Below are positions 3,207 to 64,000 of a stretch of 64,000 nt of DNA, one piece after another; position 1 is the stretch's first letter; each line of letters begins with the position of its first letter. The notes beneath the pieces were generated by a model. That model was not told the DNA's origin, did not search any database, and was given only the letters and a program-made list of their open reading frames with translations. The DNA is taken from positions 1 to 64,000 of the IMG/VR virus record IMGVR_UViG_3300008050_000036. One strand, 5' to 3'. A program made the translations under genes and the position numbers. The DNA comes from a virus.

Positions 3207-3220
3207 AGGAGATATTAAAA

Positions 3221-3325
3221 ATGAGATTATGTGTAGTTAGAAATTGTGATAAAATAGCCCGCCGTGGGTTTAGAAAGTGTATCTCTTGCTTGCAGGGAAT
3301 AAAACCACCAACGGAGGAAGAATGA
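3221..3325 (+). CDS. Small Zn-finger protein (34 aa, not in ORF track)
   Basis: MRLCVVRNCDKIARRGFRKCISCLQGIKPPTEEE. Upstream AAGGAG RBS; ATGA overlap with the next gene. Confidence 0.65.
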   Translation: MRLCVVRNCDKIARRGFRKCISCLQGIKPPTEEE

Positions 3326-3663: not shown

Positions 3664-3732
3664 TGGTTAAGGTATTGCACCCTGAGCATCGGCTTTGCAC
3701 AAGATGTGAGCGTAAGTTAAGGAGGCATCTAA

Positions 3733-4440: not shown

Positions 4441-4490
4441 AGCATTAAATGGGTGAGCCATATAGCAAGAAATCCGCAGGGGAAGATGAA

Positions 4491-37202: not shown

Positions 37203-37215
37203 TTTTTTCAACTCC

Positions 37216-38550: not shown

Positions 38551-38578
38551 TAAACTGCTTGACTTAGTGTTATGGTAT

Positions 38579-44195: not shown

Positions 44196-46010
44196 TTAAT
44201 CAATGCCTAAACGATTATCTATGTCCTTAATTTTTCTATCCACATTAGATATTCCCGGTGGGTCTAAATCCCTTGCATCACCTTTACTTTGCCCAAACTT
44301 AGTAGAACCACCCCATGCTTTCTTTTTATGGTCCGGCGACCTACCACTACCCTTTCTATGTAATGCGTTTTGGTTCAACCCTATACTACGTAGTGGTGGT
44401 AATTCCGTTCCCATTGTGGTTCGCAATGAACCCGAAATAGGAACAGAACCATGAATAGGGTCAGTGACATTCCTTTTCATAATATCCATCATTGAAGGTG
44501 GCAATACCCATTCGCTTGTTTGAACTGGGGTTGGGCCTCCGCCATGCTGACCTGAAGGCATAGGTGGCCCCTGTCCTCCCTGTTCGGGTGGTGCGGCTGG
44601 TGGGGGTGGTGCTTCTTTGTAATCAAATCTTAAACCAGCCACTTGTTCATCACGGAGGTTAGCCTCATAGCCCGCTTGTTTCATTTGCATCATGTTTCTA
44701 ATTTGCATTTCATCCTTACGCATAAGCAAAATCTCATCTTCTTCTTCATGTGGTGTCAAATCAATAGTCCATTCCGTGATTTGTAATGCTTCAAGTAATA
44801 GAGGGAATAATCTAAAATTATACATATTTTGACTGGCGGCTAAAGTGCGGTTTGTCACTACAATTTGCATACCTTCGTTATTCAAACCACCGCCCGATAC
44901 ATCATTCATAAACACATTAGAAATACCGTAAAACGATGAAATGCGTTGGCGTATGTCGTCTTTGATGGGGATATACTGCAATTCTTCCAGTGTGTCCATC
45001 ATACGGACATATTCAATGCCCCCACGCCCACTTTCTGTTTCAACCCCAATTGTAGGTATGTGTTGAGGGTCACGCTCAAGATGTTCCTGTATGTTTCGTG
45101 CCGTTCTCTCCACCGTTTCAAGATTGGATGATTTGATAACCATTACACCTCTTGGCATTCTGCGCTTTTGATATGCTGCATATACATAATTATCCATAGC
45201 AATTAGAGTATTGACTTGTCGCCATAATGTAGCAACGGGTGAACGGCCATATAATTTAGATGGCGACCATTTACTCAAATGTATTACTTCGCCTTCGGTA
45301 TAGACCTGCCCTTTACCTACACCTGCAAGATTCATATAATGAATAGGCACAACAGGCAAACCTGTTTTTGGGCATTTTTCATCTTTATCACTTGTGCGGA
45401 ATGACCTATCTAATAGACTGGTATATTGTTTTCCTCCCCTTATGCCCCGCTTATCACTAACAATACGCATAAAAATTGGGTCTGCTCTTGTAATTTCTTT
45501 TATTCTGTAAAATTGCGGTTTGCCTGAAGTAGGGTCCACAAAGTATTCTTTGGTGAGAATAATGTAGGCATCATCAACGATATTCAAGTCCATTTCAATT
45601 TCACGCAATACTTCAAGAAAAGATTGACCCATTCGGTTGTCATGCTCAAGCAATACCTTTGCATATTCTAATTGTCCTTTGTCTGCGGGGCGCACTTCAC
45701 CTTCACATTCAATACAATTATCCACTTCTTTTTGGTATTCTGTTTCGCATTCCCTACACTTTACCACAAAATTAGATTTCCAATCCCACCCTTTACGGAA
45801 TGTTTCGGTAGCCAAATGGTTAAGAATAGAGCGTAATACTAAGCATTCATAAGCCGCAGCGTATAGTGCAGGTATTGTAATTCCCTGTAATAATGCCGGT
45901 TCTTGCACACCACTGGTGAACAAAGGCATTTCAGGGGTTGGTGTGCTATGGCGTTCCATATCCACCCCAAGAGCAGAAAAGAGCCGTTCAATTCGCTTTT
46001 TATCAACCAT
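44196..46010 (-). CDS. Portal protein with Zn-ribbon insertion
   Basis: DLNIVDDAY, EVIHLSKWSPSKLYGRSP, RMPRGV and ISSFYGISNVF; CREC..CIEC insert; downstream of TerL. Confidence 0.9.
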   Translation of the reverse strand: MVDKKRIERLFSALGVDMERHSTPTPEMPLFTSGVQEPALLQGITIPALYAAAYECLVLRSILNHLATETFRKGWDWKSNFVVKCRECETEYQKEVDNCIECEGEVRPADKGQLEYAKVLLEHDNRMGQSFLEVLREIEMDLNIVDDAYIILTKEYFVDPTSGKPQFYRIKEITRADPIFMRIVSDKRGIRGGKQYTSLLDRSFRTSDKDEKCPKTGLPVVPIHYMNLAGVGKGQVYTEGEVIHLSKWSPSKLYGRSPVATLWRQVNTLIAMDNYVYAAYQKRRMPRGVMVIKSSNLETVERTARNIQEHLERDPQHIPTIGVETESGRGGIEYVRMMDTLEELQYIPIKDDIRQRISSFYGISNVFMNDVSGGGLNNEGMQIVVTNRTLAASQNMYNFRLFPLLLEALQITEWTIDLTPHEEEDEILLMRKDEMQIRNMMQMKQAGYEANLRDEQVAGLRFDYKEAPPPPAAPPEQGGQGPPMPSGQHGGGPTPVQTSEWVLPPSMMDIMKRNVTDPIHGSVPISGSLRTTMGTELPPLRSIGLNQNALHRKGSGRSPDHKKKAWGGSTKFGQSKGDARDLDPPGISNVDRKIKDIDNRLGID

Positions 46011-47292
46011 TGATTATATCCTCCAACCAAGAATCTAAAGTATCAATAGGCACATTCCATGCTTTGAGTAATGTGGTTTGGTGTTGTAAGTCGGCATGTT
46101 GAAATGCTAATATGCGACCCGCATTTTCATTTCCTTCAAGAGAAGCAAGAATTAAATGGGCTTCGGTTTTCTTTTTATTCAAAAATGGCAAAGCGAGATT
46201 TGCTGCCTTTATCACGGCTTGGTCGCCCTCAATCACAAATTGCTTGCCCTCCCACATAATACCCTCTACACCCAATTCCCTTTTTAGCACAACGGTATAA
46301 TCTTCTGCTCGCTTTGAATTAAAAGGTAAAAATAAACGAGGTGAACCAGTGGGTGACATTTCCACCCTACCTTCAACCTCCCATAAATTACCAATAAAGG
46401 AGTCATATTCTTTTAAGAAAAGTGGGGGTTTATTTGTGCCATAATATAATGTCCTGTCGTCATTTTTAGTGCCTTTACCTACTACTTTAAGGTCATATAA
46501 ATAGCCATAGGCTTTTATCAATGAAGCAACTTCTTGTGTAGTGCCTTTTACCCCATATGAACTAATGGTTTGGGCATTCATGTGACCGTTTTTTGTTAAA
46601 ACCTCATTACATGCCTTAAGGATGGTTCGCTCTCGCCTACTTATCCTATTTTCAGCATTAAGGCGCATATCCCATGTTTTCCAAATCTCATCCACTTCTT
46701 CATCAGTATTGGCTTTCTTTAGAGCCACTATGGTTTGGCGTAATGGTAATTCTAAACGGTCAGGGTATTTAGCCAATAAATTATAATCGTTATCTTGAAG
46801 GCGTAAAGTAATTTCATCATTATCATACCACCATTCATATTGCTTCAAAATAGCCCGTTGTTCAGCACGTAATAATGCTAATACACTTGGTATAATCTCA
46901 TGTTCACCACCTTTTTCTAATAATTCTACTAATTTTTCACCCCTTATACCGAAAGTGTCTTTGAAGTATGTTTTTGATAATTGGGGCGGAATAGGGGGTG
47001 CATCGGCAATAACACCGGGTTGAGTGGGTGTGCTTTGTTGTGCATTACCTTGTAATCCAGTTATGTCAGAACCTTTAGTGGCTTGAGATGGTAAAGGAGT
47101 ATTGTCTTGACCCTGCGACTCTTGTTGGTTGTTCATATCTTCCATAGCCTGTGTCAATTCTTTTTCTTTTTGTTGAACCTTCAATGAAGCGGGGTCAGTT
47201 CCTCCGCCCGTTGGTAATAACTTCACCAAAGAATCATTTATTGTTTTTATGTCCGGATTCCATTTTATTTGTTTCATTCCGAACCACCCCAC
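46003..47292 (-). CDS. Protein with C-terminal degenerate LAGLIDADG-like domain
   Basis: FIGNLWEVEGRV..LKRELG..G..W..LALPFLNKKKTEAHLIL resembles a single LAGLIDADG domain. Confidence 0.55.
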   Translation of the reverse strand: MGWFGMKQIKWNPDIKTINDSLVKLLPTGGGTDPASLKVQQKEKELTQAMEDMNNQQESQGQDNTPLPSQATKGSDITGLQGNAQQSTPTQPGVIADAPPIPPQLSKTYFKDTFGIRGEKLVELLEKGGEHEIIPSVLALLRAEQRAILKQYEWWYDNDEITLRLQDNDYNLLAKYPDRLELPLRQTIVALKKANTDEEVDEIWKTWDMRLNAENRISRRERTILKACNEVLTKNGHMNAQTISSYGVKGTTQEVASLIKAYGYLYDLKVVGKGTKNDDRTLYYGTNKPPLFLKEYDSFIGNLWEVEGRVEMSPTGSPRLFLPFNSKRAEDYTVVLKRELGVEGIMWEGKQFVIEGDQAVIKAANLALPFLNKKKTEAHLILASLEGNENAGRILAFQHADLQHQTTLLKAWNVPIDTLDSWLEDIING

Positions 47293-48704
47293 CCTAATCT
47301 TTTAGTCCATGCTTCGGCATCCAACATAACTATATTATCTCTATACTCTTTTGTTGCTTGAACTGCTAATGCTAATGCAATTACTGTGTCATCGTGCTTG
47401 CCGAGCGACTCCATCTTACCGTTTGGCAACAATGTGAACATTGACAACTCATTTAAGAGGTTATCCATGTGTCGGCGTGTTGCGCCTTCATCTTTGTATG
47501 GTAATGCCAAATGCCGTTGTTCGAAATGTAATTGTAAAGTGTGCATTACTGCTTCTTTACGCATACGGCTCATAGTGAATGGTTTTATGGGTAAATCACT
47601 TATTTCTTTTAATACTTGATGAAATGCTTGAGCGAAGTTATTTGTTTCTAATTCAATAATAACTGGGTTATAGCGGGCATTCAATTCAATAACTTTGTCA
47701 ATTTGAGAACTAAAGTCCATCCCCTTTTCGTGGTGCATCCATACCACCCGTTTATGGCGGTTAGCATCCATAGCAATAACAACCATACAAGTGTAATCGG
47801 CTTTTCTATCAGGGCTAATCGCAGGGTCCCACCCAATATAATAATTAACTTGTTCATCATCATCACCATCCATAAGAGCGTTGAACTCCAAAGCCCTGCT
47901 GGTATCTTTACAAGACTCTAACATATCTTCAGGGAATAAACTCGATTCACTGGCTATCGGCTTACATAAGTATTCTCTTGTGAAAGCAATAGAAGTCATT
48001 TCGCCCCTACGAGTCTGCAAGGCTTCTAAAGACCAGCGTTCAGGCCAAAGTGGATTGCCACTTTTTTCATCAATGGCGGGATATTCCCCCACCCAATAAC
48101 CTTTCAAACTCCTTAATTCTTGGTAAAGGTCAGTATATGAAAAAGGTGTTCCTACAATACATAATTGTGCGGTGTGGTGAAGCACTGGTAAAAGGGCAGT
48201 ATAGAACCAAGTAGCAATATGGGCTAATTGTGTAGCGGCTTCGCTTGAAAGTATATCGTCAAGCACTACAATGTCGGGGTGCGCCCCACGAACCGCTTTA
48301 CCCACAGACATAGCATGAATACTGGATTTATTAGTGAACTTGAACTTCTGTTTATTCCAACCTCTTTTTGGTTTAAGGTGCGCTAAAGCAGGAATAGACA
48401 TTATCATTTCATCCATTTTAGCCATGTGTTCAATAGACTGGTGCTGACTGTGTGAAAAGAAAAGCACTTCTGTTCCGGGGTTATAGGCTAATTTCCATAA
48501 CAAATAACATCTAAAAAAAACGGATTTGCCGTGGTCGCGGCTCGCTATAACGCATACTTTGGTATTGTTTTCTGCCGCATCAAACCATTCTTTATGAAAA
48601 GAAGCCAACTGAAAGGCACAAATATCTTCAAAAAAGTATTGAAAATCACGCCGCCCCATATCCCAATCTACTTTATTGGTGAGGTCTAAAACAGCATCCG
48701 ACAT
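47274..48704 (-). CDS. terL: Terminase large subunit
   Basis: Walker A ASRDHGKS, Walker B VVLDD, GTP coupling motif, nuclease IGWDPA and HDDTVIALALA. Confidence 0.95.
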   Translation of the reverse strand: MSDAVLDLTNKVDWDMGRRDFQYFFEDICAFQLASFHKEWFDAAENNTKVCVIASRDHGKSVFFRCYLLWKLAYNPGTEVLFFSHSQHQSIEHMAKMDEMIMSIPALAHLKPKRGWNKQKFKFTNKSSIHAMSVGKAVRGAHPDIVVLDDILSSEAATQLAHIATWFYTALLPVLHHTAQLCIVGTPFSYTDLYQELRSLKGYWVGEYPAIDEKSGNPLWPERWSLEALQTRRGEMTSIAFTREYLCKPIASESSLFPEDMLESCKDTSRALEFNALMDGDDDEQVNYYIGWDPAISPDRKADYTCMVVIAMDANRHKRVVWMHHEKGMDFSSQIDKVIELNARYNPVIIELETNNFAQAFHQVLKEISDLPIKPFTMSRMRKEAVMHTLQLHFEQRHLALPYKDEGATRRHMDNLLNELSMFTLLPNGKMESLGKHDDTVIALALAVQATKEYRDNIVMLDAEAWTKRLGWGGSE

Positions 48705-54966: not shown

Positions 54967-55344
54967 TCAAAATATAACCCTTACACTATTCCCACAAAGG
55001 GGGCATTCATAATACGGTTCAACGCCTCCCGTTGCCTTTCTTGCCACTTTTTTCATTGGGTAATTGTGACAATTAGCGCAATCAACCTTGTTTGAATGTG
55101 GTCGTGGCATTTGAGCCATCAAGTGTTCTTGTTCATCTTCACCTTTCAGCACAGACCAGCCTATGCGGGATGCTCGGTCATTTGACTTCTTTTTATCAGA
55201 ATCAAACGCCAATTTATCTTTATGGTGTTCACCTTGCTCAAAATCTCGGTCACGGTTTGCTGTATCGGTTTCATCTTTACAAGTAGGGCAAAGGCCGCTT
55301 TCACACTCCCTACATTCTTCATTACAATCTTCACATTTAGCCAT
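54967..55344 (-). CDS. Cys-rich tagged mini-protein D
   Basis: CEDC..CREC..CPTC, SNDRASRIGWSVLK, CANC..CPLC; ATG 55344. Confidence 0.7.
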   Translation of the reverse strand: MAKCEDCNEECRECESGLCPTCKDETDTANRDRDFEQGEHHKDKLAFDSDKKKSNDRASRIGWSVLKGEDEQEHLMAQMPRPHSNKVDCANCHNYPMKKVARKATGGVEPYYECPLCGNSVRVIF

Positions 55345-55346
55345 CT

Positions 55347-55487
55347 TCAATCCCTCTCCGTTGTTCCGCAAGTTCGGCATCTGCGTGTGCCATCTTTTCT
55401 TTCAACCATGCGTTTATTATCACAGCATTGGTCTTTCACCACAGACCAACCTGTGCGGAATGCTCGGTCATTGGACTTTTCGGTCAT
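55347..55487 (-). CDS. Cys-rich tagged mini-protein C (46 aa, not in ORF track)
   Basis: MTEKSNDRAFRTGWSVVKDQCCDNKRMVERKDGTRRCRTCGTTERD; ATGA overlap. Confidence 0.7.
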   Translation of the reverse strand: MTEKSNDRAFRTGWSVVKDQCCDNKRMVERKDGTRRCRTCGTTERD

Positions 55488-55627
55488 AGAATACCCCCCC
55501 AACAATCGTCACCGCAACATTCAGAACACATCCCACATTCTAAACAAGAAGCATCTTCATCACAATCAGGACATTTTCTCGCTTTTGCTTTCACCACAGC
55601 CCAACCTATGCGGAATGCTTCACCCAT
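55484..55627 (-). CDS. Cys-rich tagged mini-protein B (47 aa, not in ORF track)
   Basis: MGEAFRIGWAVVKAKARKCPDCDEDASCLECGMCSECCGDDCWGGIL. Confidence 0.7.
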   Translation of the reverse strand: MGEAFRIGWAVVKAKARKCPDCDEDASCLECGMCSECCGDDCWGGIL

Positions 55628-55629
55628 CT

Positions 55630-55911
55630 TCAAGCACCCCCTTTTGGTATGCAATCAGGATTAGCACAAGCACGATTTCTGCTCGGCCCTTGTGGTAATC
55701 CACATCTATTACAATTCCATGTCCCTACCTTTCCTTTTCCTGTTTTGGGGTCTGTTCCGTGAGGATGACCTTTCACCACAGCCCAACCTGTGCGGAATGC
55801 TTTGCTAACATCACACTTCGGGCAATAAGATTCAGAAATACCACCGACACCACCCCCTCTATGGGTTTGGGTCATTGGCCCTTTACATTTTCTGCACACC
55901 TTTTCACCCAT
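55630..55911 (-). CDS. Cys-rich tagged mini-protein A (93 aa)
   Basis: CRKC..CPKC, SKAFRTGWAVVK, CNRC..C..C; ATG 55911 after a GGGGTG RBS. Confidence 0.7.
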   Translation of the reverse strand: MGEKVCRKCKGPMTQTHRGGGVGGISESYCPKCDVSKAFRTGWAVVKGHPHGTDPKTGKGKVGTWNCNRCGLPQGPSRNRACANPDCIPKGGA

Positions 55912-56614
55912 CTTCAAGCACCCCCGCATCAGCCAAAGCCTTACGCATAACTCGCCATTCATCAGGCGATTTCTCGGAGAAATGGGCTTGAATAACCGTA
56001 AGAACTGATACTTGTTCATTAGAACCTATACTTTCAGCCTTTTCGATGTATTCGGCAATATCTGTTAATGTATCGCGTATTTCGCGGTGCATTTTTACGG
56101 CGGTGTCTAATCCTCTATAATCCAGTATGCCTTCGTCATTTCTTTCTTCTTCAAGCATACTTACATGAGAATTGAATAAAGAATTGAGGCGTTGGAGGTT
56201 ATTTTCGGTTTGTATCATAGCCCCTCGCACACTACTCAAAGCGGCTGGCAATACCTCCATTTCCACTTGCCGTTGGATAATGGGTGCTGTGTGCATTTCA
56301 ATGTGGTGTTCTACATTACTTGAGGTCATTTCCAAATCAAGTGCCATATCAGCAGCACTAACCAAACCATTCATTACGGCTTCCTCAATGTTAGCCCTTT
56401 CAGGGTGTGTGCATAAAGGGCATTGTGAATTACTATTATTATGATATTCACCGGAATGTCGCCTCATATGACGGTGAGCAGTGCCTTCTGCCCATATTTT
56501 ATTAGCATCTAAATCAACTACATCTAAAACACCAGTGCGTATGCGTTCTTCGTAGCCATCCCGTTCAGGGTGCATACAAAAGGGACAATTGCGCCTTGTC
56601 TTACGACCTACCAT
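55904..56614 (-). CDS. Putative terminase small subunit / DNA-binding protein
   Basis: Two CPxCxHPER..E..HTH-like..H repeats followed by a coiled coil; heads the morphogenesis run. Confidence 0.5.
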   Translation of the reverse strand: MVGRKTRRNCPFCMHPERDGYEERIRTGVLDVVDLDANKIWAEGTAHRHMRRHSGEYHNNSNSQCPLCTHPERANIEEAVMNGLVSAADMALDLEMTSSNVEHHIEMHTAPIIQRQVEMEVLPAALSSVRGAMIQTENNLQRLNSLFNSHVSMLEEERNDEGILDYRGLDTAVKMHREIRDTLTDIAEYIEKAESIGSNEQVSVLTVIQAHFSEKSPDEWRVMRKALADAGVLEDG

Positions 56615-56652: not shown

Positions 56653-56850
56653 CTATTTTTTGGTATGAACATTACAAAATTGACCGTTCCCCATCTTACC
56701 ATTCCTACACCTTTTACCACTTTTAGTAATCGCTACGCAAACCGTTGGTGTTTCGTCATCAACTACTGGTGGTTGTATTTTAGGGGGTTCAATATACTGA
56801 ACTGGTTGATAGGCAGGGTATTGGTAATTGTTAATACCGAAAGGCGGCAA
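56653..56850 (-). CDS. Small protein with C-terminal CCCH Zn finger
   Basis: CVAITKSGKRCRN..FCNVH; Pro/Tyr/Gln-rich N-terminus. Confidence 0.7.
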   Translation of the reverse strand: MPPFGINNYQYPAYQPVQYIEPPKIQPPVVDDETPTVCVAITKSGKRCRNGKMGNGQFCNVHTKK

Positions 56851-57091
56851 ACTGCCGGACCGCCAGCGTAATAGTGAGTATTAAACCAAAAAACAAAGCC
56901 ATCATTTCACTTGTTCCTAAAGAGGGTCCTTTCCAAAGTAAAACGGTGAAGGTAAAGAGCATAAATGCAAGAATATAAATCATAGTAGCCCCTTCAACAA
57001 GCATTTTATTTGGGCTTAATAAATCAACAGTCGCACTCGACCAACTAATTTCCCCTTGAACGGCAGAATCATTTTTGTTATCATTTTTCAT
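56831..57091 (-). CDS. Two-helix membrane protein
   Basis: MIYILAFMLFTFTVLLW and MMALFFGLILTITLAV; GAGGTGA RBS. Confidence 0.75.
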   Translation of the reverse strand: MKNDNKNDSAVQGEISWSSATVDLLSPNKMLVEGATMIYILAFMLFTFTVLLWKGPSLGTSEMMALFFGLILTITLAVRQFAAFRY

Positions 57092-57100
57092 ATTTTCACC

Positions 57101-57775
57101 TCAAAGTATGGCTGCCCCTTTAGCGGCCATTCCTACACCTTGCCCTACCGTAGCACCAAAACCACCTTGTTGTTGCACTGCATTACCCATCATGCCCCCT
57201 ATTAAATTACCAAAGAAACCCGGTTGTTGTTGTGGATTCATTAACTGTTGTTGTAAAGCCCCTTGTTGGTGCGCTTGTAAAAACATTTGTTGTTGCTGTT
57301 GGTTGTTGTTTAATGTCTGTTGTGCAGAACTTTGCACTTTTTGTAATGTCAAAGCGAGGTTCTCAGGAGATAGTGTCGCTAAATTAGAAGGTAGGGAATT
57401 ACCATCTAATGTTATTTTACCGTCTGAATCAGTAATAAAACTCACACTCTTAAAGAACTCTTTAATTGAAAGCATCATTACTTCCCCTACTAAATCCATA
57501 ACCATAGCCATATTTTGACTCATCATAAATTGAGCCATTGGGTCATAGAGAGCAAGTAATTGAGCCGTAGCCACGATTGGGTCATTAGCGGCTTGTTGCA
57601 TCATGGGGTTTTGTGCTTGTTGCATCATACCAAGACCCCCCATACCACCTTGTTGCATTCCATAGCCGCCACCATAGCCTTGTTGCATTCCATAGCCATT
57701 CTGCTGCGCCGCTAAATTGGGCGCACCAAATTGTTGCGTTTCTTGTGTTTTATTTCCTCCAAAAAGCCAGCCCAT
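57101..57775 (-). CDS. Gln/Gly/Met-rich protein with N-terminal MGWLFGG
   Basis: GGTGA RBS; low-complexity ends around a central helical core. Confidence 0.75.
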   Translation of the reverse strand: MGWLFGGNKTQETQQFGAPNLAAQQNGYGMQQGYGGGYGMQQGGMGGLGMMQQAQNPMMQQAANDPIVATAQLLALYDPMAQFMMSQNMAMVMDLVGEVMMLSIKEFFKSVSFITDSDGKITLDGNSLPSNLATLSPENLALTLQKVQSSAQQTLNNNQQQQQMFLQAHQQGALQQQLMNPQQQPGFFGNLIGGMMGNAVQQQGGFGATVGQGVGMAAKGAAIL

Positions 57776-57786
57776 ATTATTTTCAC

Positions 57787-58686
57787 CTACTGTTGTGTTG
57801 CTGCTAACATTTGTTGTGTTGCATCAACCGGAACCACGCCTGACATTTTTTGTTGTTGTTGCATCTGTTCCATTTGTAAAGCCCTCAAATCAAAAGTGAT
57901 TGTCACTAAATCAGCCACCCCTGATACGGGGTTCGGGTGTTGCGTGAGGGTCACACCCTTTGAGTATTGTGCGTCTTGTTGCACCATTTTGAAAAATTGT
58001 TCATATTTCGCTAAAGACTCAGGGGTTGAACGATTGCGTTTTTGACTTTTTATCATTCCGGGTATTTTCAAAAAGCGTGTTCCTTTAGATACGGGGCGGC
58101 TAAATCCTTCAGAAGCCAATTCCTGTTCTTCTATAACTACGCGTAAAGTGTGGTAAATGTGTAAATGTGCCGGACAAAGTGTGCTATTCATTTCATCCCC
58201 AAAATCCCCATGTGTGCGGGCGTGTGGTTTTTTGGCGTTCCCTGTTTCTGCATCAAACCAGTATATATCGCTTAAAGATAAGCCAGTGCGTTCATCACTA
58301 ATATGAGAGTAAGCATTGTCGCCTTCTAAAAATCGGCGCACATCAACGCCACAACACGCACATTCATGGGCGGCATTGTAGCGATATACTTTGAAAAAGC
58401 CCAAATTGAGGTTAGGTGGCCGTAAAACCTTTCTTAGAATCTTTATATTCTTTCTTCGGGCTTTAGCAGGGTTTTTGATGTTGGTTTTTAACTTAACTTC
58501 AACAGTGGGTATCATTTCTTCTTCCCCACTTACAATTCCCGTTGAGCCAGCCGAAGCCATTTCTGCCCTTTGTTGAGCCTTTAGCAATTCGTAGGCCACT
58601 CCTGTTTGTGTGGCTAAGACACGTAATTCATCATCGGTAGCACCCCGTAAGGATATGGCCCCGCCGCCCAAAAAATTAGGTATCAT
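57787..58686 (-). CDS. Hypothetical Zn-binding protein
   Basis: HECACCG..LCPAH; Gln-rich C-terminus; GGGGAGAGG RBS. Confidence 0.75.
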   Translation of the reverse strand: MIPNFLGGGAISLRGATDDELRVLATQTGVAYELLKAQQRAEMASAGSTGIVSGEEEMIPTVEVKLKTNIKNPAKARRKNIKILRKVLRPPNLNLGFFKVYRYNAAHECACCGVDVRRFLEGDNAYSHISDERTGLSLSDIYWFDAETGNAKKPHARTHGDFGDEMNSTLCPAHLHIYHTLRVVIEEQELASEGFSRPVSKGTRFLKIPGMIKSQKRNRSTPESLAKYEQFFKMVQQDAQYSKGVTLTQHPNPVSGVADLVTITFDLRALQMEQMQQQQKMSGVVPVDATQQMLAATQQ

Positions 58687-58737
58687 GTCCTCTCCCCTAT
58701 AATCCTGTCAAGGCTAACACTATGAAAAGACTTGCGG

Positions 58738-59463
58738 TTAAATCTTATCTATTGTATCTATTATTGCCCGTTCCACATTCAAACCATATTGGGCTGCAAT
58801 AGCCTCAACATTGGTTGGTATGGCTGCCCTTCGTAGTCGCCGTAATTCATTTTGAAAGGGCAAAACCATTTTGTGTTGGCGTTTTAGCCCTAAATCCCAC
58901 ATATGTTGGGCTTCATTATCCCACCACAAATCCATTTTATTGATTAACAGACATACTACCTTTGGTTTGTATTTTTTGGCCTTACGGCGCATTTTACGAC
59001 TAAACGTGCTTGGGTATTTTTTACCCACTATAATATCCACCAAATACTGAAAACCGGCTACCATTTCAGCCGCCACATAGGGAGATTGTAATATGCGTTC
59101 ATCAATCACATAAAATATAACTTGGCGGTCTTGGTCTATTATATCTTCGGCCCACATGTTCCAGTATTGGGTTTGACCCCCAATATCTGTTGAAGTAATA
59201 GGGATTCGCTCACCCTTCCACCGTATTTGTTTTTTAGAACCATGAGGCATTTTGAAAGCCCCATGCTTTACTGGGTGGCTGGTTCGCAATTGAAGGGGTA
59301 TTGGGTCAATATCACCCGGAACAGTCATATATTGGTCTAAAGTAGTCTTACCTGCAAGACTTGAACCATAAATACCAACTCTATACGGGCGCAATATCCT
59401 ATAAATCAAATTGGCTACTTGGGCCGTTCCCATTAGTATATGACCCGCGAATAACCATGACAT
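58738..59463 (-). CDS. Arf/Ras-superfamily-like small GTPase
   Basis: G1 GSSLAGKTT, G3 DIGGQ followed by TQYWNMW, beta4 VIFYVID, G4 LINKMD and G5-like IAAQYGLNV. About 25-aa amphipathic N-terminal extension. Confidence 0.88.
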   Translation of the reverse strand: MSWLFAGHILMGTAQVANLIYRILRPYRVGIYGSSLAGKTTLDQYMTVPGDIDPIPLQLRTSHPVKHGAFKMPHGSKKQIRWKGERIPITSTDIGGQTQYWNMWAEDIIDQDRQVIFYVIDERILQSPYVAAEMVAGFQYLVDIIVGKKYPSTFSRKMRRKAKKYKPKVVCLLINKMDLWWDNEAQHMWDLGLKRQHKMVLPFQNELRRLRRAAIPTNVEAIAAQYGLNVERAIIDTIDKI

Positions 59464-59469
59464 TCAATT

Positions 59470-59691
59470 TCACTTCCCCCTTAGCCAAGTCCATATACTT
59501 GTAGGGCTTATATCTAACCATAAATCCAATCCTAACTGAATAAAAAATGAAAGGCTAACACCACCCACAAACGCCAATACCACTTTAAGCGACCAAGCCG
59601 CCCTCTCCATGCGTCTATCATACGCATTTTCAGCAAGTATAGCCGACATTGCTTCTGCTTGCCTTTCCTGAGCAGTATTAAACGGCCACAC
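59470..59691 (-). CDS. Small membrane protein
   Basis: GTG start after AAGGTGG; hydrophobic VVLAFVGGVSLSFFIQLGL. Confidence 0.7.
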   Translation of the reverse strand: MWPFNTAQERQAEAMSAILAENAYDRRMERAAWSLKVVLAFVGGVSLSFFIQLGLDLWLDISPTSIWTWLRGK

Positions 59692-59703
59692 GATAAAGCC
59701 ACC

Positions 59704-60183
59704 TTAAACCTGTATAAGAGGGATTTCTTCATTAGGGGCTTCGGGTGAATCATCTTGAAAGGATGGTTGGGTTATAGGTAGGCCGAAAGTCTGCCCGTTG
59801 CCTGTCATTGGTTGTTGTTGATAATACTTCATTTGGCCCATTTGACTTTTGCGGGCGCGGCGTTCTTGGAGGCGTTCTTGGCCTCTTTGCCACTTATCGA
59901 AGCGGGCTTCTTGAGAGAACTCGGCTCGCATAGCCAAAGAATCACGAATACCTCCTACATGAAATAGCACCATAGCCACGCATAAGAAACCAAAAGTCAC
60001 TAATCCGTATTGTAATCCCATTTCGGCGGCACTTGCAGAAGGCAAATACCAATTCATATGTGATACCGATACCGCCACACCAGTTAAAAGTGATTGCCAA
60101 AGCAGCATAGCAATTAAGTTAATATCAATTCTGTTTTCATCCATTTTGGGGTAGGTCATTTGTCTTTGTGGTGCTTGCATCAT
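59704..60183 (-). CDS. Two-helix membrane protein with coiled-coil/Gln-rich tail
   Basis: LIAMLLWQSLLTGVAV and YGLVTFGFLCVAMVLF; GGAGG RBS. Confidence 0.75.
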   Translation of the reverse strand: MMQAPQRQMTYPKMDENRIDINLIAMLLWQSLLTGVAVSVSHMNWYLPSASAAEMGLQYGLVTFGFLCVAMVLFHVGGIRDSLAMRAEFSQEARFDKWQRGQERLQERRARKSQMGQMKYYQQQPMTGNGQTFGLPITQPSFQDDSPEAPNEEIPLIQV

Positions 60184-60185
60184 GT

Positions 60186-60320
60186 TTAATCCTCCGGTTG
60201 GTTATTAAAATACTCTTTTAGGACATGAGATACAAAAGAAGATTTGCTCTCACGACCCCTTGCGGCTTCTAATTTGGCGAAAATATCATCGGACACAATC
60301 ACCGATACATGGCGGCTCAT
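60186..60320 (-). CDS. Ribbon-helix-helix (CopG/Arc-like) regulator (44 aa, not in ORF track)
   Basis: MSRHVSVIVSDDIFAKLEAARGRESKSSFVSHVLKEYFNNQPED has an alternating beta strand, helix A, G-x-x-SKS turn and helix B. Confidence 0.75.
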   Translation of the reverse strand: MSRHVSVIVSDDIFAKLEAARGRESKSSFVSHVLKEYFNNQPED

Positions 60321-60388
60321 GGTAAATTGGGAGGGTTGTCAGCCTTATGAGGGTTATGATTATTTATGGTGTTATAGTGCGACTTTAC

Positions 60389-60913
60389 ATGGCGGGTCCT
60401 AATCTCACCGAAGCGGTAATGGCTATGCGCTCGTTTCATGCAGCAAAAAACGCTTCACCCGCTAACCCTAATTTGGTGTCGTCATGGGTTCAGCGTCAAA
60501 CAAATGCTGACATTGCACCTAATTTCTCACACAATGCCGCTATTGCACTACTACACTACTACCAGCACCCACTATATGGTAATTCCAGTAATTTACCATC
60601 AACGGCTCAAGGGTGGCTACCTTTAATGCAACCCGCCGAAAACATACTATCTAATGAAGAATCGTGGATAGATACCCAAATTACGGCTAATATCAATACA
60701 ATGCTAACCCGTATTTTCACTACTGATGATATGTGGCTTCACCAATGGGGTGCAATAAACAACTTCCCGCCTGATACTCCTTTGGCTTTCATAATCAATT
60801 TTTTAATTAACCGCTTGATGAATTGTGAGGGTGCTAATGGGCCAAGTGGTGCAGGGGGAATATCTTTCACCGAACATATATTACCATCAGGTGATGATAA
60901 CTCCCTACCTTAA
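60389..60913 (+). CDS. Hypothetical protein (lone + strand gene)
   Basis: ATG 60389 preceded by a TTATTTAT TATA-like box about 25-30 nt upstream. Confidence 0.6.
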   Translation: MAGPNLTEAVMAMRSFHAAKNASPANPNLVSSWVQRQTNADIAPNFSHNAAIALLHYYQHPLYGNSSNLPSTAQGWLPLMQPAENILSNEESWIDTQITANINTMLTRIFTTDDMWLHQWGAINNFPPDTPLAFIINFLINRLMNCEGANGPSGAGGISFTEHILPSGDDNSLP

Positions 60914-62118
60914 AATCCTTCATCAACCTTTCGTGGTTGTAATGATTTGGCTCTATTTACGATAGAAACAGATGGATTTATTTGAGGTCCAGTGTAAAAG
61001 GCATTACCTTGAGGGTCATATCTCAATTGCCCACCCCCCCTTAACTCCATTGTAGCACCTTTCTTTGAACCAATATGAGGGAAAAAGGAACTCATATTAC
61101 TTTTGCGTTGCTTTTTCCCTTCAAAACAAGAGGGACAGTTATTTTCTTCACAACTATCATCTTTCACCGAAGGGTCTGATGCAGGACAAGCAAATATGTT
61201 AGGCCCCGCTGCCCCAACACCAGTAGCAGATATTTGGGGGTGTTCTTCAACCATCTCACGGAGATAGCGGGGTATAGTAGGCAAACCTAATGTTCGGTTC
61301 ATATCATCATCCATACTTTGCCCAATCCACGGCAAACTTGCACTAACTTCCATATTTTCGGGTATTGCATCATCCCATCCTCTTGCATCAACCACATTTC
61401 TTAATGCCCTATGTTCAGCAGTAGGCATCCATGATTGTGTTTTTAGTGGGTGTTCGTTAAGAATGTTGCGGGCTATATCAAAATCCATAGCAATATGTTC
61501 TTCCCCTTGTTTTTCTCCCGCATCACTATGTCTAAAATAAGGCGTTCCGTAATCCCATGTTTTGTGAGGTAATGTAGAGGCCATAGCAGAAGCATACTTT
61601 AATTGTTCTTCATGTCCTTCATTCATCAATAACGCTACGGCGTTGCGCCATAAGGCTTTATTTTTTGAATTATACTTAAAATTAGGAGTGTTGTCATTAT
61701 AACATATATTACAAGTAGCACCTTTTTTGTCCCTATAACAACCACCCATATTACATAAAGCGTTAGGTAGGCCGTGTGTTGCACCATACATTTTATCCGT
61801 AAATCCATATCCTCCCGTTTTGGCGTTTAATCCTGTCATTATGTTAGCCGACATTCTGTTCTTAGGGCCTGAAGGCCATTTCGGGATTTGGGTTATTTCT
61901 TCGACAGGCCAATGAACTTGTAAGTCTTTTAGCCAATCATCAATTTCCTCCTTACCTTCATTTGTTTTAGTCCAATTTTTAATTTGGCCCCCTGCCCCTA
62001 CTTTTGTTGTGCCTCCTAAAGCCACGGGGTCCCACCAACCCACTTTCCCCGGTTGCCCTAATGGATAATCAAGCCCTTTAACAAGAGCCTTAGCAAGAAT
62101 CTCTACACCCAAAAACAT
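60910..62118 (-). CDS. GP88-like Cys-rich (Fe-S-type) protein
   Basis: GLPNALC..CNICY, YFRHSDAGE, WMPTAE, IPENM and CPA..C..C..C match the gene-product-88 pattern as recalled. Confidence 0.7.
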   Translation of the reverse strand: MFLGVEILAKALVKGLDYPLGQPGKVGWWDPVALGGTTKVGAGGQIKNWTKTNEGKEEIDDWLKDLQVHWPVEEITQIPKWPSGPKNRMSANIMTGLNAKTGGYGFTDKMYGATHGLPNALCNMGGCYRDKKGATCNICYNDNTPNFKYNSKNKALWRNAVALLMNEGHEEQLKYASAMASTLPHKTWDYGTPYFRHSDAGEKQGEEHIAMDFDIARNILNEHPLKTQSWMPTAEHRALRNVVDARGWDDAIPENMEVSASLPWIGQSMDDDMNRTLGLPTIPRYLREMVEEHPQISATGVGAAGPNIFACPASDPSVKDDSCEENNCPSCFEGKKQRKSNMSSFFPHIGSKKGATMELRGGGQLRYDPQGNAFYTGPQINPSVSIVNRAKSLQPRKVDEGF

Positions 62119-62125
62119 AATTATT

Positions 62126-63760
62126 TCACCTGTTCCTGTTAAAATGCCCTAAAACGGCATCAGCCATTGCCCTTGCTACTAAGGGATTAACGGCATTTCC
62201 TATTCCTCGTTGTGATTGCGCTGCGGTTGTATCGCCTAACTTATAATTCATCGGGAAGTTCCCCAAAGCCAAAACATCTTTTTGACTCAATGGCCCTACT
62301 CCTAAATGTCCGGGTATATTACTACTGGTTAATGACGACATATGGGTATCTATTGGTTTAGTGCCATGCCATGAATACCCCTTCTTTTCAGAAGTCCACG
62401 GCGAGGGTGTATGCCCGCCACCCCTACCGGGAAATGGTGTGCCATGATGTGTTATATGAGGTTCTGTTAATAATTTTGTGGCAATTTTTGGGTCAATTAC
62501 TCCATTAGCGAGCAAACCTAAAATATAATCAGATTTACTTTCAAAATTATCGTGTTCTTCTTCCTCCATATGGGGCAAAAAGTCTTTTACTGTGTTCCAA
62601 TTTGACCTAAACTTTTGTCCGGGTGCTTCATCAAATGGTCTTTCAATGTCAATAAGTTGGTCTAATCCATAAAATCTATTACGTTGTTGTGCGCTGCCAA
62701 AATCAGCAGCATAAGTAGGCTTGCTTCTTTCTACCATCCGTTTAACCCATGCGGGAGGTTGCTTCCATTTTTGCCGACCTGATGCTAAAATGGGTTCTTT
62801 GATATTGGGGGTTTGTTCAAAGGCTGATACAAATTGGTTTTTACCTAATTTACGGCGGAGTTCATTCGCAAGGTCAAAGGTATAATTCTGTAATAACATG
62901 GTTTGAGCATGGTCTTTTTCTCCCGGCCTTGCATTACTACTATTGATACATGGTGCTGATTGAGATAAAAATACTGGCCTACCGTCTGCATGGTCTATCA
63001 TGCGCCCTGCCAATTCTTTATGTCCTAATTCGCCCTCTCCCTCGCCCAATGTCGCTTCAATTAACTCATGGTCGGGAAAATTGGCTCTAAATCGTTCTGC
63101 GGCGATTGGGTCATTTTCAACACCAATGCCCGGTTCTAAGCCACTCATCTCTAATCCAACATCAGTGCCACCCCACCCTGAAAATGTAGTATTGCCTACT
63201 ACATTATGGGGGTTTTTTTGTTTTTTGGGGCGGTTCATAAGGTTATGATAAGCAGAATATATTTCAGGGTCTAAATAATCTCGCCCCTTGAGTAAAGTGT
63301 CCCATGCTATTTCAAACGCATCTTCTGAGGCATAAAAGCCCATTTCACGTGCTTCTTTACCCTCCAATCCGGCAAACTTGCATTTATCCCATTGGTCCAA
63401 TACTTGGCGAGCATAAAAATGAAACTCCGTTGGTGGTAATTCAGGCTTACGGCTTGTGACATTATTTTGATAGAACGGGCCGGGTATATCACCTGCAAAA
63501 TCACGCAAAGCCGCTTCCAATTCTTCACAACTCATTGCATCATAGCCTTCTATAATTTTTGATTCATAGCCACGGGGTTGAATATCTGATTGCGCCAAGA
63601 GATTATACCACATTTCCCTTGCTTTACCACAACATGGGTCATTCCCCATGTCTATCTGCTCAAAATCAGGGATAGTATCTTCATCGGGTAATAGAATATC
63701 ATTAACCCGTTCCCGCAAATTACGTGGTTCAATGGCGGAAGCCTCTAAATCACCTACCAT
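62126..63760 (-). CDS. Divergent C5-cytosine methyltransferase-like protein with N-terminal extension and tag
   Basis: FSGWGG, GVEND, SAPC, FEQT, AADFGSAQQRNRFY and GIGNAVNP, preceded by SEDAFEIAWDTLLKG. Confidence 0.8.
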   Translation of the reverse strand: MVGDLEASAIEPRNLRERVNDILLPDEDTIPDFEQIDMGNDPCCGKAREMWYNLLAQSDIQPRGYESKIIEGYDAMSCEELEAALRDFAGDIPGPFYQNNVTSRKPELPPTEFHFYARQVLDQWDKCKFAGLEGKEAREMGFYASEDAFEIAWDTLLKGRDYLDPEIYSAYHNLMNRPKKQKNPHNVVGNTTFSGWGGTDVGLEMSGLEPGIGVENDPIAAERFRANFPDHELIEATLGEGEGELGHKELAGRMIDHADGRPVFLSQSAPCINSSNARPGEKDHAQTMLLQNYTFDLANELRRKLGKNQFVSAFEQTPNIKEPILASGRQKWKQPPAWVKRMVERSKPTYAADFGSAQQRNRFYGLDQLIDIERPFDEAPGQKFRSNWNTVKDFLPHMEEEEHDNFESKSDYILGLLANGVIDPKIATKLLTEPHITHHGTPFPGRGGGHTPSPWTSEKKGYSWHGTKPIDTHMSSLTSSNIPGHLGVGPLSQKDVLALGNFPMNYKLGDTTAAQSQRGIGNAVNPLVARAMADAVLGHFNRNR

Positions 63761-64000
63761 ATAATCAATCCCTAAAGGTTTGCTTTCAAAAACATTTAGG
63801 TTATTTTAACCAAAAACAATAGTATTGGACCCATAATGTTCAATCCTCAAAGGGTATGTTAGGGTTGTCAGCCATGCAAGCATTGATAGGCTATGCCGTT
63901 TTGCCCCCATCCATGATGAACGGACCCAATGGACCCATTTTTATTTTGAAGGAAGGAACAGAAAGGAGTCAAGGCAGGAATGCTCAATTGAATAACATAG

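Follow-up and report, generated by a model that had tools for sequence, protein, structure and literature searches.

The window, that is, the whole 64,000-nucleotide stretch of viral DNA that was analysed, carries at 56653–60320 on the minus strand a block of eight co-oriented ORFs (Table 1), as tightly packed as the initial annotation had described them, with intergenic gaps that run, in gene order, 2, 12, 6, 51, 11, 9 and −20 nt. The internal genes are preceded by Shine-Dalgarno-like GGAGG/GGTG motifs, such a motif being absent upstream of the 44-aa gene, and a ninth member, encoding a 236-aa zinc protein, always accompanies the eight. At the other end, the start of a divergent 188-aa gene lies 26 nt from that of the RHH-like gene; because of this divergence at so short a distance, the block probably has its own promoter, and a ATAAATAAT box, read by eye, is located 35–45 nt upstream of the ATG of the RHH-like gene. 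Relatives of the 188-aa gene occupy the same place and orientation in loci L007, L008, L098 and L009 (E 1.6e-28 to 8e-6), and a Pfam search with it gave no match. Within the window, the block heads a gene run leading to the large terminase (TerL), portal, protease, major capsid protein (MCP) and tail tube, the recognisable large terminase gene (47274–48704) being located 7.2 kb beyond the 236-aa gene.

Table 1. Genes of the block, its ninth member and its upstream boundary, with the evidence for each.
Feature	Position	Strand	Evidence
188-aa gene, upstream boundary of the block	60347..60913	+	ORF; relatives in the same place
44-aa RHH-like protein (pattern only), first gene of the block	60186..60320	-	ORF; conserved in 11/11 close loci
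159-aa protein, two hydrophobic segments	59704..60183	-	Hydropathy; 11/11 close loci
73-aa tail-anchored protein	59470..59691	-	Hydropathy; orthologues in close loci
241-aa divergent Arf-like small GTPase	58738..59463	-	G motifs, PDB profile, structural alignment
299-aa Cys/His (probable zinc) protein	57787..58686	-	Invariant Cys/His; profile (HMM) search
224-aa Gln/Gly/Met-rich protein	57101..57775	-	Composition; alignment; hhalign
86-aa membrane protein, two-helix hairpin	56831..57091	-	Hydropathy; 11/11 close loci
65-aa Cx9Cx10Cx2H finger protein, TTG start	56653..56850	-	ORF; weak relatives
236-aa protein, two CxxC...HxxxH units	55904..56614	-	Synteny; sub-threshold DUF7367

Judged by its motifs, the 241-aa protein is a real, conserved small GTPase, and it is presumably active. 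The G1 (GSSLAGKT), G3 (DIGGQ, then six residues and W104), G4 (NKMD) and G5 (AAQ) elements annotated earlier are conserved in the family, with G38, K39, T41, D93, G96, W104, N175-K176-M177-D178 and Q225 invariant in all 35 members; the catalytic Gln of G3 is replaced by Asp or Glu in 11 of the 35. Its switch I/interswitch region is longer than that of 8oun_A by about 17 residues, and G4 is preceded by a polybasic loop, SRKMRRKAKKYKPK. The amphipathic N-terminal extension proposed for the protein corresponds to a hydrophobic/amphipathic helix at about residues 3–24, of moderate amphipathicity in the window GTPase (Eisenberg mean hydrophobicity 0.22, moment 0.57); in the family the median hydrophobicity is 0.21 and the median moment 0.455, and the best helix window exceeds 95% of shuffles in 19 of 32 members, a lenient test given that the best window was chosen. 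Kyte-Doolittle analysis finds no membrane segment in the GTPase, whose N-terminus stays below transmembrane-level hydropathy; those of the distant members P0250 and P0264 are clearly more hydrophobic and anchor-like.

Both sequence and fold place this GTPase nearest to Arf/Arl and Asgard Arf proteins, and an Arf-like character is supported by this resemblance. PDB-profile matches comprise the Asgard Arf 8oun_A (E 2.1e-5) and Arl8 (E 0.03), and in VIA-align comparisons with the AlphaFold2 model (pLDDT 69, residues 44–90 below 50) the best 22 chains are all Arf/Arl or Asgard Arf (Z 13.3–12.5). Membership of the Arf family itself is not supported, since several Arf signatures fail and the window protein scores 11.1 bits against Pfam Arf, for which the cut-off is 22.3. 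The Leu-Asp of the Arf G1 is absent from all 35 members, only 15 of which retain the Gly at the third position of DxGG. Two distant members, P0264 (27.2 bits) and P0277 (60.7 bits), pass the Pfam cut-off.

Three further products are membrane proteins by hydropathy (Kyte-Doolittle, 19-residue windows, threshold 1.5 or above), in agreement with the initial annotation. The 159-aa protein has two hydrophobic segments (19–41 and 55–84) followed by a charged C-terminal tail and then a Q-rich one, and the positive-inside rule suggests that both of its termini are probably cytoplasmic; it is 60–72% identical across the 11 close loci, 52 clade D loci give profile (HMM) matches to it out of the 71 whose upstream DNA extends far enough, and a protein of the same build occupies its position in clades B and C. 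The 73-aa protein combines a conserved N-terminal helix (MWPFNTxQERQAEAM...) with one C-terminal hydrophobic segment (31–59); a hydrophobic ORF of 72–79 aa takes its position in loci L020, L093 and L096, and an ORF of 50–120 aa with a hydrophobic 19-mer directly precedes the GTPase in 56 of 71 clade D loci. In the 86-aa protein, found in clades A and D (11/11 close loci, 70/80 clade D loci), a single merged hydrophobic stretch (29–84) is long enough for two helices, and we infer a cytoplasmic N-terminus.

Among all the products, the 299-aa protein is the best conserved of the block, with at least 120 relatives, all 61% or more identical among the matches listed; none of the 120 listed has a Pfam domain. 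C109, C111, C112, C171, H174, H176 and H179 are invariant in 32 of 32 sequences, as are the motifs ECACCG and CPAHLHIYH, and the C-terminal tail is Q-rich. Profile (HMM) searches place this protein directly after the GTPase in clades A, C and D; its clade B counterpart is matched by hhalign at E 6e-4 and a probability of 28%, and a sequence alignment reveals a core common to the clades (a basic helix, FxYxYN, C..C and GT[YL]C[PE]xH). The 224-aa protein contains 39 Q, 32 G and 21 M, and when clades A, B and C are aligned (11 sequences), the protein is seen to begin with MG[WL]F, to have a conserved domain in its middle (about 67–163) and to end in a hydrophobic, Gly/Ala-rich C-terminus; the clade A and clade B forms match each other (hhalign probability 74.8%, E 2.6e-5, 84 columns), and no match was found in Pfam, PDB profiles or Atlas. 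Q-rich low-complexity tails are present on three cassette proteins in all.

The remaining small proteins are less readily classified. The first gene had been called an RHH regulator, and the sequence pattern stands (a strand, HVSVIV, plus two helices, with 18 invariant columns in eight sequences); it is found only in clade A, in all 11 close loci, and Pfam, PHROG and PDB profiles lend the assignment no support. The 65-aa finger protein, whose TTG start yields an MPPFG N-terminus, has a sub-threshold DUF5763 match (18 bits against 26.3) and weak relatives in 11 of 11 close loci (E 4e-17 to 0.006), of which three ORFs begin with MPPFG or MLPFG and the others hold the motif inside longer called ORFs. 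Beyond the block, the 236-aa protein corresponds to the putative small terminase subunit (TerS) of the initial annotation. It contains two CxxC...HxxxH units, is helical over a long middle part and resembles DUF7367 at its C-terminus; its syntenic place holds, always after the block in 11/11 close loci and 80/80 clade D loci, but its DUF7367 match is sub-threshold (22.8 bits, cut-off 27), its PHROG match is of unknown function, and terminase family searches gave no match.

The initial annotation had tied any joint function to co-conservation of the GTPase with its neighbours, and this is what related viruses present. The nine-gene order is preserved in all 11 close IMG/VR loci and in two GTDB contigs, and a five-gene core (two-TM protein, small TM protein, GTPase, zinc protein and Q/G-rich protein) is found again in four deep virus clades, in every case within or next to the late structural genes; these four clades are well supported in the GTPase tree. 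All 80 clade D loci preserve the order and carry both the zinc protein and the 236-aa protein. Of 80 clade B loci, 72 contain the complete five-gene core, and all 72 share one gene order; in clade C the GTPase and the zinc protein are found in 4/4 loci. The core persists where the GTPase is only about 30% and TerL only 37% identical, as between clades A and B, the corresponding values within clade A being 45–67% and 75–82%. Cassette proteins are 45–79% identical within clade A, versus 28–60% for the neighbouring 141-, 581- and 606-aa genes. The clade B block occupies the interval from MCP to tail tube, the usual site of head-tail joining genes, and this location fits morphogenesis equally well.

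In a search with the GTPase profile, only 82 matches emerged from 1.84 billion representative proteins, and 185,579 species genomes (one per species) contained two real matches, both with the whole viral cassette. A further 200 genomes of the likely host order gave no match at E up to 0.01, and in none of the genomes searched was the block encountered as a host gene. It is best explained as a late-gene cassette that archaeal tailed viruses of the magrovirus type inherit vertically, and the literature searched contains no description of it.

The genomic context would support a function in lysis/egress, in vesicle formation or in a membrane compartment, owing to the small membrane proteins that face the cytoplasm, a location in the late operon and the absence of any recognisable lysis enzyme: no lysis-type or hydrolase-type domain is found by Pfam in the 39 window ORFs scanned, a set without the 2796-aa ORF and many small ORFs. 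Upstream of the GTPase there are always genes for two small membrane proteins, and downstream those for the Cys/His and Gln/Gly-rich proteins. We tentatively prefer, at somewhat less than an even chance, a role in virion release, for which the proteins would make up a machine on the cytoplasmic side of the host membrane under the control of a GTP switch. The three membrane proteins, with probably cytoplasmic termini and no sizeable outside domain, would therefore form a membrane platform or a pore-forming unit; the N-terminal helix and the polybasic loop would hold the GTPase at the membrane, where it may switch the recruitment or assembly of the zinc and Q/G-rich proteins on the platform, and the outcome would be a timed disruption or remodelling of a host envelope that probably consists of a membrane and a surface layer only, allowing virions to leave the cell. 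In brief, a GTP switch would control a holin-like membrane unit. The players of lytic egress in archaeal tailed viruses are called 'completely uncharacterized' in a 2024 review (PMC10791045). The small GTPase ArvA, which drives vesicle formation in Haloferax alongside a Zn-ribbon protein (PMC10927574), offers a precedent. Against this reading, none of the block proteins matches any holin, lysin or membrane-remodelling family, the G3 Gln is replaced in 11 of the 35 GTPases, and the N-terminus of the window GTPase falls short of transmembrane-level hydropathy. Phage lysis genes are usually far more variable than this cassette, whose high conservation therefore looks more like that of core machinery and argues against release.

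A second, rather unlikely reading is that the cassette helps morphogenesis, acting at the host membrane as an anchor or timer for capsid assembly, DNA packaging or head-tail joining. The GTPase would then serve as a checkpoint for assembly, and the Q/G-rich and zinc proteins would be scaffolds or chaperones. The constant placement of the block inside or adjoining structural genes, in the MCP–tail tube gap in clade B and, in clades A and D, immediately ahead of the 236-aa zinc protein and the gene run towards TerL, is consistent with such a role, as are a divergence that roughly tracks the hallmark genes and a zinc protein conserved to the degree of a structural protein. The cassette nevertheless has no similarity to known head, neck, scaffold or packaging families, its position within the structural region varies by clade, which is unusual for a fixed assembly step, and tailed viruses are not known to require small GTPases or several small membrane proteins for assembly.

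It is improbable that the GTPase bends the membrane as ArvA or the eukaryotic Arf/Sar1 do, without lysing the cell, and so gives rise to extracellular vesicles or to a membrane compartment inside the cell that serves replication or assembly. The Arf-like fold and N-terminal helix agree with this possibility, the Q-rich tails could aid multivalent assembly, and PMC10927574 describes ArvA as driving vesicle formation in Haloferax together with a Zn-ribbon protein, suggested by its authors as a possible GAP. Against it, none of the nine proteins matches ArvB (DUF2073) or ArvC (DUF2072) at E up to 0.1, the Arf G1 signature residues are missing throughout the family, head-tail virions are non-enveloped and a coat-like protein is not recognisable. 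There is little probability that the membrane proteins and GTPase instead alter host transport, signalling or surface against superinfection or defence, a role unrelated to release or assembly: exclusion is a frequent role of small viral membrane proteins, and separate regulation is suggested for clade A by the RHH-like gene and its divergent 188-aa neighbour, yet eight of the nine proteins have no PADLOC defence-family match (the ninth reaches only 15.5 bits, with LmuB), and deep vertical conservation in four clades and the late position do not resemble accessory genes with fast turnover. Recent capture of a host GTPase among unrelated neighbours without joint function, which the initial annotation had named as a refutation and for which no supporting evidence was found, is highly improbable, being contradicted, for the genomes searched, by the absence of matches in the 200 other host-order genomes, the rarity of matches, the whole cassette around both real ones and the co-conserved neighbours in four clades.

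The block is a candidate for how tailed viruses of abundant ocean archaea act on or exit through the host membrane, and it can be set beside several known systems. With the Arf family (Arl6, Arl3, Arl1, Arf6, Arl8 and the Asgard Arf 8OUN/8OUM) the GTPase shares the G-domain fold, the invariant Trp six residues after the Gln, an N-terminal helix before the G domain and a switch II in which the viral GQxxFRNLW aligns to the same motif of Asgard Arf and Arl8; it differs in a G1 without Leu-Asp, a variable DxGG Gly, the switch insert, the polybasic loop before G4 and its encoding by a virus of a euryarchaeal host. SR-beta, the Arf-like GTPase of the SRP receptor, likewise joins a hydrophobic anchor at its N-terminus to an Arf-like G domain, its chains are among the structural neighbours (Z 12.1) and the distant relative P0278 bears that name in its source, but Pfam SRPRB matches are sub-threshold and limited to 6 of 35 members, and the viral block has no SR-alpha-like partner. 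The ArvA-ArvB-ArvC vesiculation operon of Haloferax volcanii (PMC10927574) resembles the block in encoding, next to a zinc-binding protein, a small GTPase with a membrane-facing helix, and in acting on the cell membrane, as the viral block presumably does. The viral neighbours, unlike those of ArvA, show no DUF2073 or DUF2072, and the block has a Q/G-rich protein in addition, as well as two or three membrane proteins of small size. Finally, phage holin cassettes such as lambda S-R-Rz, located just before the terminase genes, also comprise late small membrane proteins with charged cytoplasmic tails beside packaging and structural genes; the viral block differs in carrying, in place of a lysin, a GTPase, a zinc protein and a Q/G-rich protein, and in sequences conserved far above what is usual for holins.

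The window covers most of a linear virus record of 73.6 kb (CheckV completeness 69%), and its minus strand holds nearly all of the large genes (see the table). The structural genes, together with the marine sources of the sequence and a related contig of 106 kb from a single-cell genome labelled Candidatus Poseidoniales, identify the virus as a tailed one of the magrovirus type, with Marine Group II archaea as hosts; sequence of this virus was present in 20 DNA datasets from marine sources and in none of the RNA datasets covered by the same sequencing-run search. At the left end, an N6/N4 DNA methylase gene and a partial gene for another C5 methylase bring the DNA methylase genes of the window to three, and an ERCC4-HhH nuclease is encoded there too; the ORF running off the opposite end resembles, by eye, a group II chaperonin.

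Position and strand of the cassette and of the main features around it, in the order of minus-strand transcription
Feature	Positions	Strand	Remark
ORF at window end	63856-63999	+	runs off the window
C5 DNA methylase	62126-63760	-	first in transcription order
GP88-like protein	60910-62118	-	precedes block in transcription order
188-aa gene	60347-60913	+	interrupts minus-strand run
Eight-gene block	56653-60320	-	
159-aa 2-TM protein	59704-60183	-	
299-aa Zn protein	57787-58686	-	
Q/G protein	57101-57775	-	
65-aa finger protein	56653-56850	-	
236-aa protein	55904-56614	-	
Cys-rich ORFs with shared motif	54967-56019	-	just downstream of the 236-aa gene
Several small Cys-rich genes, four genes without significant family match		-	between block and large terminase
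Large terminase (TerL)	47274-48704	-	
Portal	44196-46010	-	
Prohead protease	37216-38649	-	
SU10-type major capsid protein (MCP)	36045-37211	-	
Tail tube protein	29179-31404	-	
Methylases and nuclease, left end	6-6035	+	

The initial annotation had described a block of eight genes, and the corresponding ORFs were confirmed at those positions, separated by only 2, 12, 6, 51, 11, 9 and -20 nt, with Shine-Dalgarno-like motifs preceding the internal genes. The block probably has its own promoter, since the opposite-strand 188-aa gene starts 26 nt from its first gene and is conserved in the same place in four related loci (L007, L008, L098 and L009); a ATAAATAAT box, read by eye, lies 35-45 nt upstream of the first ATG of the block. 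The 188-aa protein has no Pfam match, and its gene may be regulated together with the RHH-like 44-aa gene. For the 44-aa protein, Pfam gave no match to an RHH family at E ≤0.1, the PDB profile search was empty, and one PHROG of unknown function was returned (E 0.062), so that the RHH label describes a sequence pattern alone. The 236-aa protein, proposed as the small terminase subunit, matched only DUF7367 (22.8 bits, cut-off 27) and PHROG 5382, of unknown function, and neither the PDB profile search nor NCBIfam returned a match. The 65-aa protein is weakly matched in its finger region by DUF5763 (18 bits) and, at E 0.007, by a PHROG that bears the name terminase small subunit, and the sole NCBIfam match of the cassette is that of this region to the N-terminus of haloarchaeal GvpO (20.5 bits, cut-off 52); these weak matches probably reflect a common small zinc-finger motif. 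Just downstream of the 236-aa gene, small Cys-rich ORFs each carry a near-identical AFR[IT]GW[AS]VVK motif.

Hydropathy confirmed two membrane segments in the 159-aa protein and one in the 73-aa protein, and gave none in the GTPase; the 86-aa protein, which had been described as spanning the membrane twice, shows one merged hydrophobic stretch (residues 29-84), long enough for two helices. Two side observations concern the ends of the cassette proteins. Short aromatic N-termini occur in five of them (56653-59691) and are conserved among the orthologues (L001-L011), namely MWPF in the 73-aa protein, MSW[LMIV]F in the GTPase, M..PF.GGG in the Zn protein, MG[WL]F in the Q/G protein and M[PL]PFG in the finger protein; in more distant GTPases the N-terminal Trp is lost (MSAL[VI]AGH). 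Gln-rich low-complexity tails end the 2-TM, Zn and Q/G proteins, and multivalent weak binding among these three is conceivable.

The assignment of the central gene to the small GTPases is borne out by the family itself. An indexed search returned 83 relatives (E ≤0.001), and in 35 of these, which were aligned (44-73% identical to the window GTPase, many on contigs of 95-117 kb), G38/K39/T41, D93, G96, W104, NKMD and Q225 are invariant throughout; the window GTPase carries the motifs that define the Ras superfamily (G1, G3, G4 and G5 on a G-domain fold). The more specific description as Arf-type holds in part. In its favor, the family profile found the Asgard Arf chain 8oun_A in the PDB (E 2.1e-5), followed by Arl8 chains at E ~0.03; the Asgard Arf structures named in section 6 of PMC11914678 are 8OUM and 8OUL, and in the fold-search rows the same description is carried by 8OUM and 8OUK. 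The AlphaFold2 model (pLDDT 69, residues 44-90 below 50) gave at least 500 Foldseek matches at E ≤10 and 50 at E ≤0.001, with GTPases only among the matches listed, and on re-alignment with VIA-align 890 of 1000 chains reached Z ≥8. Arf/Arl or Asgard Arf chains occupy ranks 1-22 (Z 13.3-12.5), with Rag/Gtr1 and SR-beta no more than about 1 Z unit behind; the nearest solved structures are therefore Arf/Arl as a lean of the predicted model rather than a separation.

Against the Arf-type description stand the Pfam cut-off, the G1 motif and the interswitch. The window GTPase misses the Pfam Arf cut-off (PF00025, 11.1 bits versus 22.3), and 21 of the 35 members match this profile at E ≤1 only (best E 1.4e-4); the sub-threshold Pfam matches are spread over Arf (21 members), MMR_HSR1 (16), Ras (13), Roc (13), Gtr1_RagA (6) and SRPRB (6). 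Two distant relatives from the family-profile search, P0264 and P0277, do exceed the Arf cut-off. According to the same section of PMC11914678, the Arf signature comprises Leu and Asp at G1 positions 2 and 3 and Gly at the third position of G3 (DxGG). The Leu-Asp pair occurs in none of the 35 members, where G1 reads G[PS][SPT][LM]xGK[TK], and the G3 Gly is present in the window GTPase (DIGGQ) and in 15 of the 35, the other 20 having Ala; the catalytic Gln of G3 is kept in 24, with Asp in 10 and Glu in one. The interswitch length is not Arf-typical, residues 57-83 of the query facing 46-55 of 8oun_A in the profile alignment, and this excess of about 17 residues between switch I and the interswitch is modelled at pLDDT <50. 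The GTPase is accordingly best placed with the Arf-like small GTPases as a divergent family of its own, and membership in the Arf family is rejected. In one source, a relative bears the name 'GTPase SAR1 family protein', so the GTPase is already known to automatic annotation.

An N-terminal helix (residues 3-24, about the first 25 residues) is predicted at low model confidence; its median moment is 0.455 at a hydrophobicity of 0.21, and in a best-window test the helix outscored 95% of shuffles in 19 of 32 members. It could be an amphipathic helix or, equally, a shallow anchor, and in the distant relatives the segment is more clearly anchor-like than in the window GTPase. A conserved polybasic loop precedes G4.

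An exhaustive profile search of 1.84 billion representative proteins yielded 82 hits, among them full-length proteins that define further clades; one hit, P0230 (2180 aa), is a tandem-repeat protein and a spurious match. In a maximum-likelihood tree of 71 GTPases, four clades were recovered: A, which contains the window (98/76), B with the distant relative P0217 (100/99), C with P0210 (100/99) and D with P0205 (98/94); the other distant GTPases sit on long, unreliable branches. Of the most distant relatives, P0207 (by pattern search), P0250 and P0218 found no locus in the viral scan, nor did P0250 and P0282 in the metagenome scan, and tblastn with the GTPase against GenBank phage records gave no match.

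The cassette is real and deeply conserved. The neighbors had been expected to be co-conserved with the GTPase if the cluster is functional, and all nine genes occur in the same order in 11 of 11 IMG/VR clade A loci, the 65-aa finger protein being detected weakly in some. In clade D (80 loci kept of 127, searched with clade A profiles), all 80 loci contain the GTPase together with the Zn and 236-aa proteins, 70 contain the 86-aa protein, 61 the Q/G protein and 55 the 159-aa protein, and gene order is the same throughout the 80; upstream DNA was long enough in 71 loci, and in 56 of these the GTPase is directly preceded by a small hydrophobic ORF. One clade D locus (L174, 6740-6940) has a 66-aa ORF between the GTPase and Zn genes that looks, by eye, like an AbrB/SpoVT-type DNA binder. 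The GTPase is followed by the Zn protein in all four clade C loci, and the two whose ORFs were read (L093 and L096) have the complete five-gene pattern; the gene just upstream of the cassette in these two (L093 4250-5785, L096 3820-5481) is group II chaperonin-like by eye, as is the ORF at the window end (TLGPKGMDK..., ILKEGTERSQG... among them).

In clade B (80 loci kept of 140), clade A profiles match the GTPase alone, and the ORF series consists of a 165-aa two-segment protein, a 73-aa hydrophobic protein, the GTPase, a 226-aa Cys protein and a 237-aa protein starting MMGVFG; the five genes are all present in 72 of the 80 loci, in identical order in each of the 72. Profile-profile comparison of clades A and B gave a probability of 99.7% for the GTPase, 74.8% for the Q/G protein (E 2.6e-5), 28% for the Zn protein (E 6e-4), 4% for the 2-TM protein and 0.4% for the small TM protein. 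Judged by these values against mismatched control pairs (0-23%), the Zn and Q/G proteins are likely homologous between the two clades, and homology of the membrane proteins is based solely on position and build. The clade B block is flanked on one side by the MCP, a small gene and a SAP-domain gene, and on the other by two unknown genes and the tail tube. Within clade A, identity is 75-82% for TerL, 79-88% for the MCP, 45-67% for the GTPase and 61-79% for the Zn protein, and between the window and clade B it is 37% for TerL and about 30% for the GTPase. This clade-wide conservation, with GTPase and Zn identities set against those of TerL and the MCP, points to a block that has been inherited with the virus over a long time; it evolves more slowly than the non-hallmark 141-, 581- and 606-aa neighbors (28-60% identity).

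When 185,579 species were scanned, each represented by a single genome, three loci were returned. One (L097) is a 106,262-base contig in a Candidatus Poseidoniales single-cell genome, where the complete cassette is followed by relatives of the 141-, 581- and 606-aa genes of the window; it is probably a magrovirus captured inside its host cell, and supports the host assignment. Another (L098) is an 8,227-base contig binned as Parvibaculum sp., also with a complete cassette, and is most likely a binning error; the third was a short spurious match. In a sample of 200 further genomes of the order of the L097 archaeon, many of them incomplete, the GTPase was found in none at E ≤0.01. A recent capture of the GTPase from a host, which would have set it apart from its neighbors, is thus not borne out in the genomes searched, where both real matches lie in full viral cassettes.

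The AlphaFold2 model of the 299-aa Zn protein is poor (pLDDT 63, pTM 0.32); a wide VIA-align search yielded helix-turn-helix-like matches to residues 4-52 only (Z ≤4.5) and none at Z ≥5, the PDB profile search had 0 hits, and the Atlas search gave nothing usable. Aligned across clades A, B and C, the Zn proteins share a core of a basic helix, FxYxYN, a Cys pair and GT[YL]C[PE]xH. The residue spacing of the 299-aa protein (CxCC...YxHI...N-x3-C-x2-H) looked by eye like that of an HNH nuclease; this reading was rejected, the H128 stretch being an insertion confined to clade A and missing in B and C, and no HNH family matching. A complex prediction of the GTPase with the 299-aa protein, GTP and Mg scored 0.00 in a run without controls and has no bearing on whether the two bind. 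The Q/G protein resembles, in its MG[WL]F N-terminus, the membrane-inserting N-termini of ESCRT-III/PspA-type proteins; Pfam, PDB profile and Atlas searches all came back without a match for it, and the likeness serves as a lead only.

As to function, the reading we favor, tentatively, is that the cassette may be a GTP-switched membrane platform that acts late and serves virion release. By the positive-inside rule, the three membrane proteins would keep both ends, or the long one, on the cytoplasmic side, with almost nothing exposed outside, and the GTPase, zinc protein and Q/G-rich protein would be cytoplasmic; the GTPase, at the inner membrane face, would switch assembly of the platform with its two soluble partners late in infection. 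The host probably has no rigid wall, and opening of the membrane alone may suffice for release. It is possible, if doubtful, that the cassette is more precisely the lytic egress machine of archaeal head-tail viruses, in which the GTPase, anchored by its N-terminal helix, would sense the nucleotide state of the cell or a viral timer and drive the zinc and Q/G-rich proteins onto the platform of three membrane proteins, so that the host membrane opens. A 2024 review (PMC10791045) describes the lytic egress of archaeal tailed viruses as uncharacterised, its players in head-tail viruses as "completely uncharacterized", and holins as elusive there.

The main rival, a role in morphogenesis, is somewhat unlikely in our judgment; the location of the block among structural genes, like its high conservation, agrees with this role no less well than with egress. 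An ArvA-like part in forming vesicles or a compartment is improbable; Pfam found neither ArvB (DUF2073) nor ArvC (DUF2072) among the nine cassette proteins at E ≤0.1. Host takeover or exclusion is very improbable, and a defence-family search of the cassette proteins gave no real match.

The word GTPase is absent from the main text of five magrovirus papers (PMC5434244, PMC11706807, PMC10160649, PMC5628999 and PMC12999244), whose supplements may list the gene, and from that of a survey of archaeal tailed viruses (PMC8651126); no description of a virus-encoded GTPase of archaeal viruses or Poseidoniales viruses was found in the literature searched, in which the cassette is undescribed. Marine Group II archaea are described as among the most abundant microbes of the surface ocean, and their viruses are reported to be ubiquitous there (PMC10160649). 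Neither virus nor host is cultured, and the cassette, absent from the searched host genomes, amounts to five to nine genes that can be cloned as a set, centred on a small GTPase of the kind that bends membranes in eukaryotes and in Haloferax. With it, Arf-like GTP switches become known from viruses of Euryarchaeota as well, which bears on the spread of such switches before or beside eukaryogenesis. If the cassette is indeed a lytic egress machine, no small-GTPase membrane machine would be known earlier from viruses of prokaryotes, and it would place GTP-switched membrane remodelling in the euryarchaeal virosphere, beyond Asgard archaea and eukaryotes.

In comparison with known systems, the cassette differs from ArvABC vesiculation, in which, according to PMC10927574, the GTPase is encoded alongside ArvB and ArvC, by the absence of DUF2073 and DUF2072 neighbors. 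It differs from holin-endolysin cassettes in having no adjacent cell-wall or envelope hydrolase, and no hydrolase domain was found in the cassette or in 39 scanned ORFs of the window. With the latter cassettes it shares small membrane proteins with a charged tail, the 159-aa protein having two segments and such a tail, the 73-aa protein one segment and the 86-aa protein two, a holin-like build common enough to make this a weak test.
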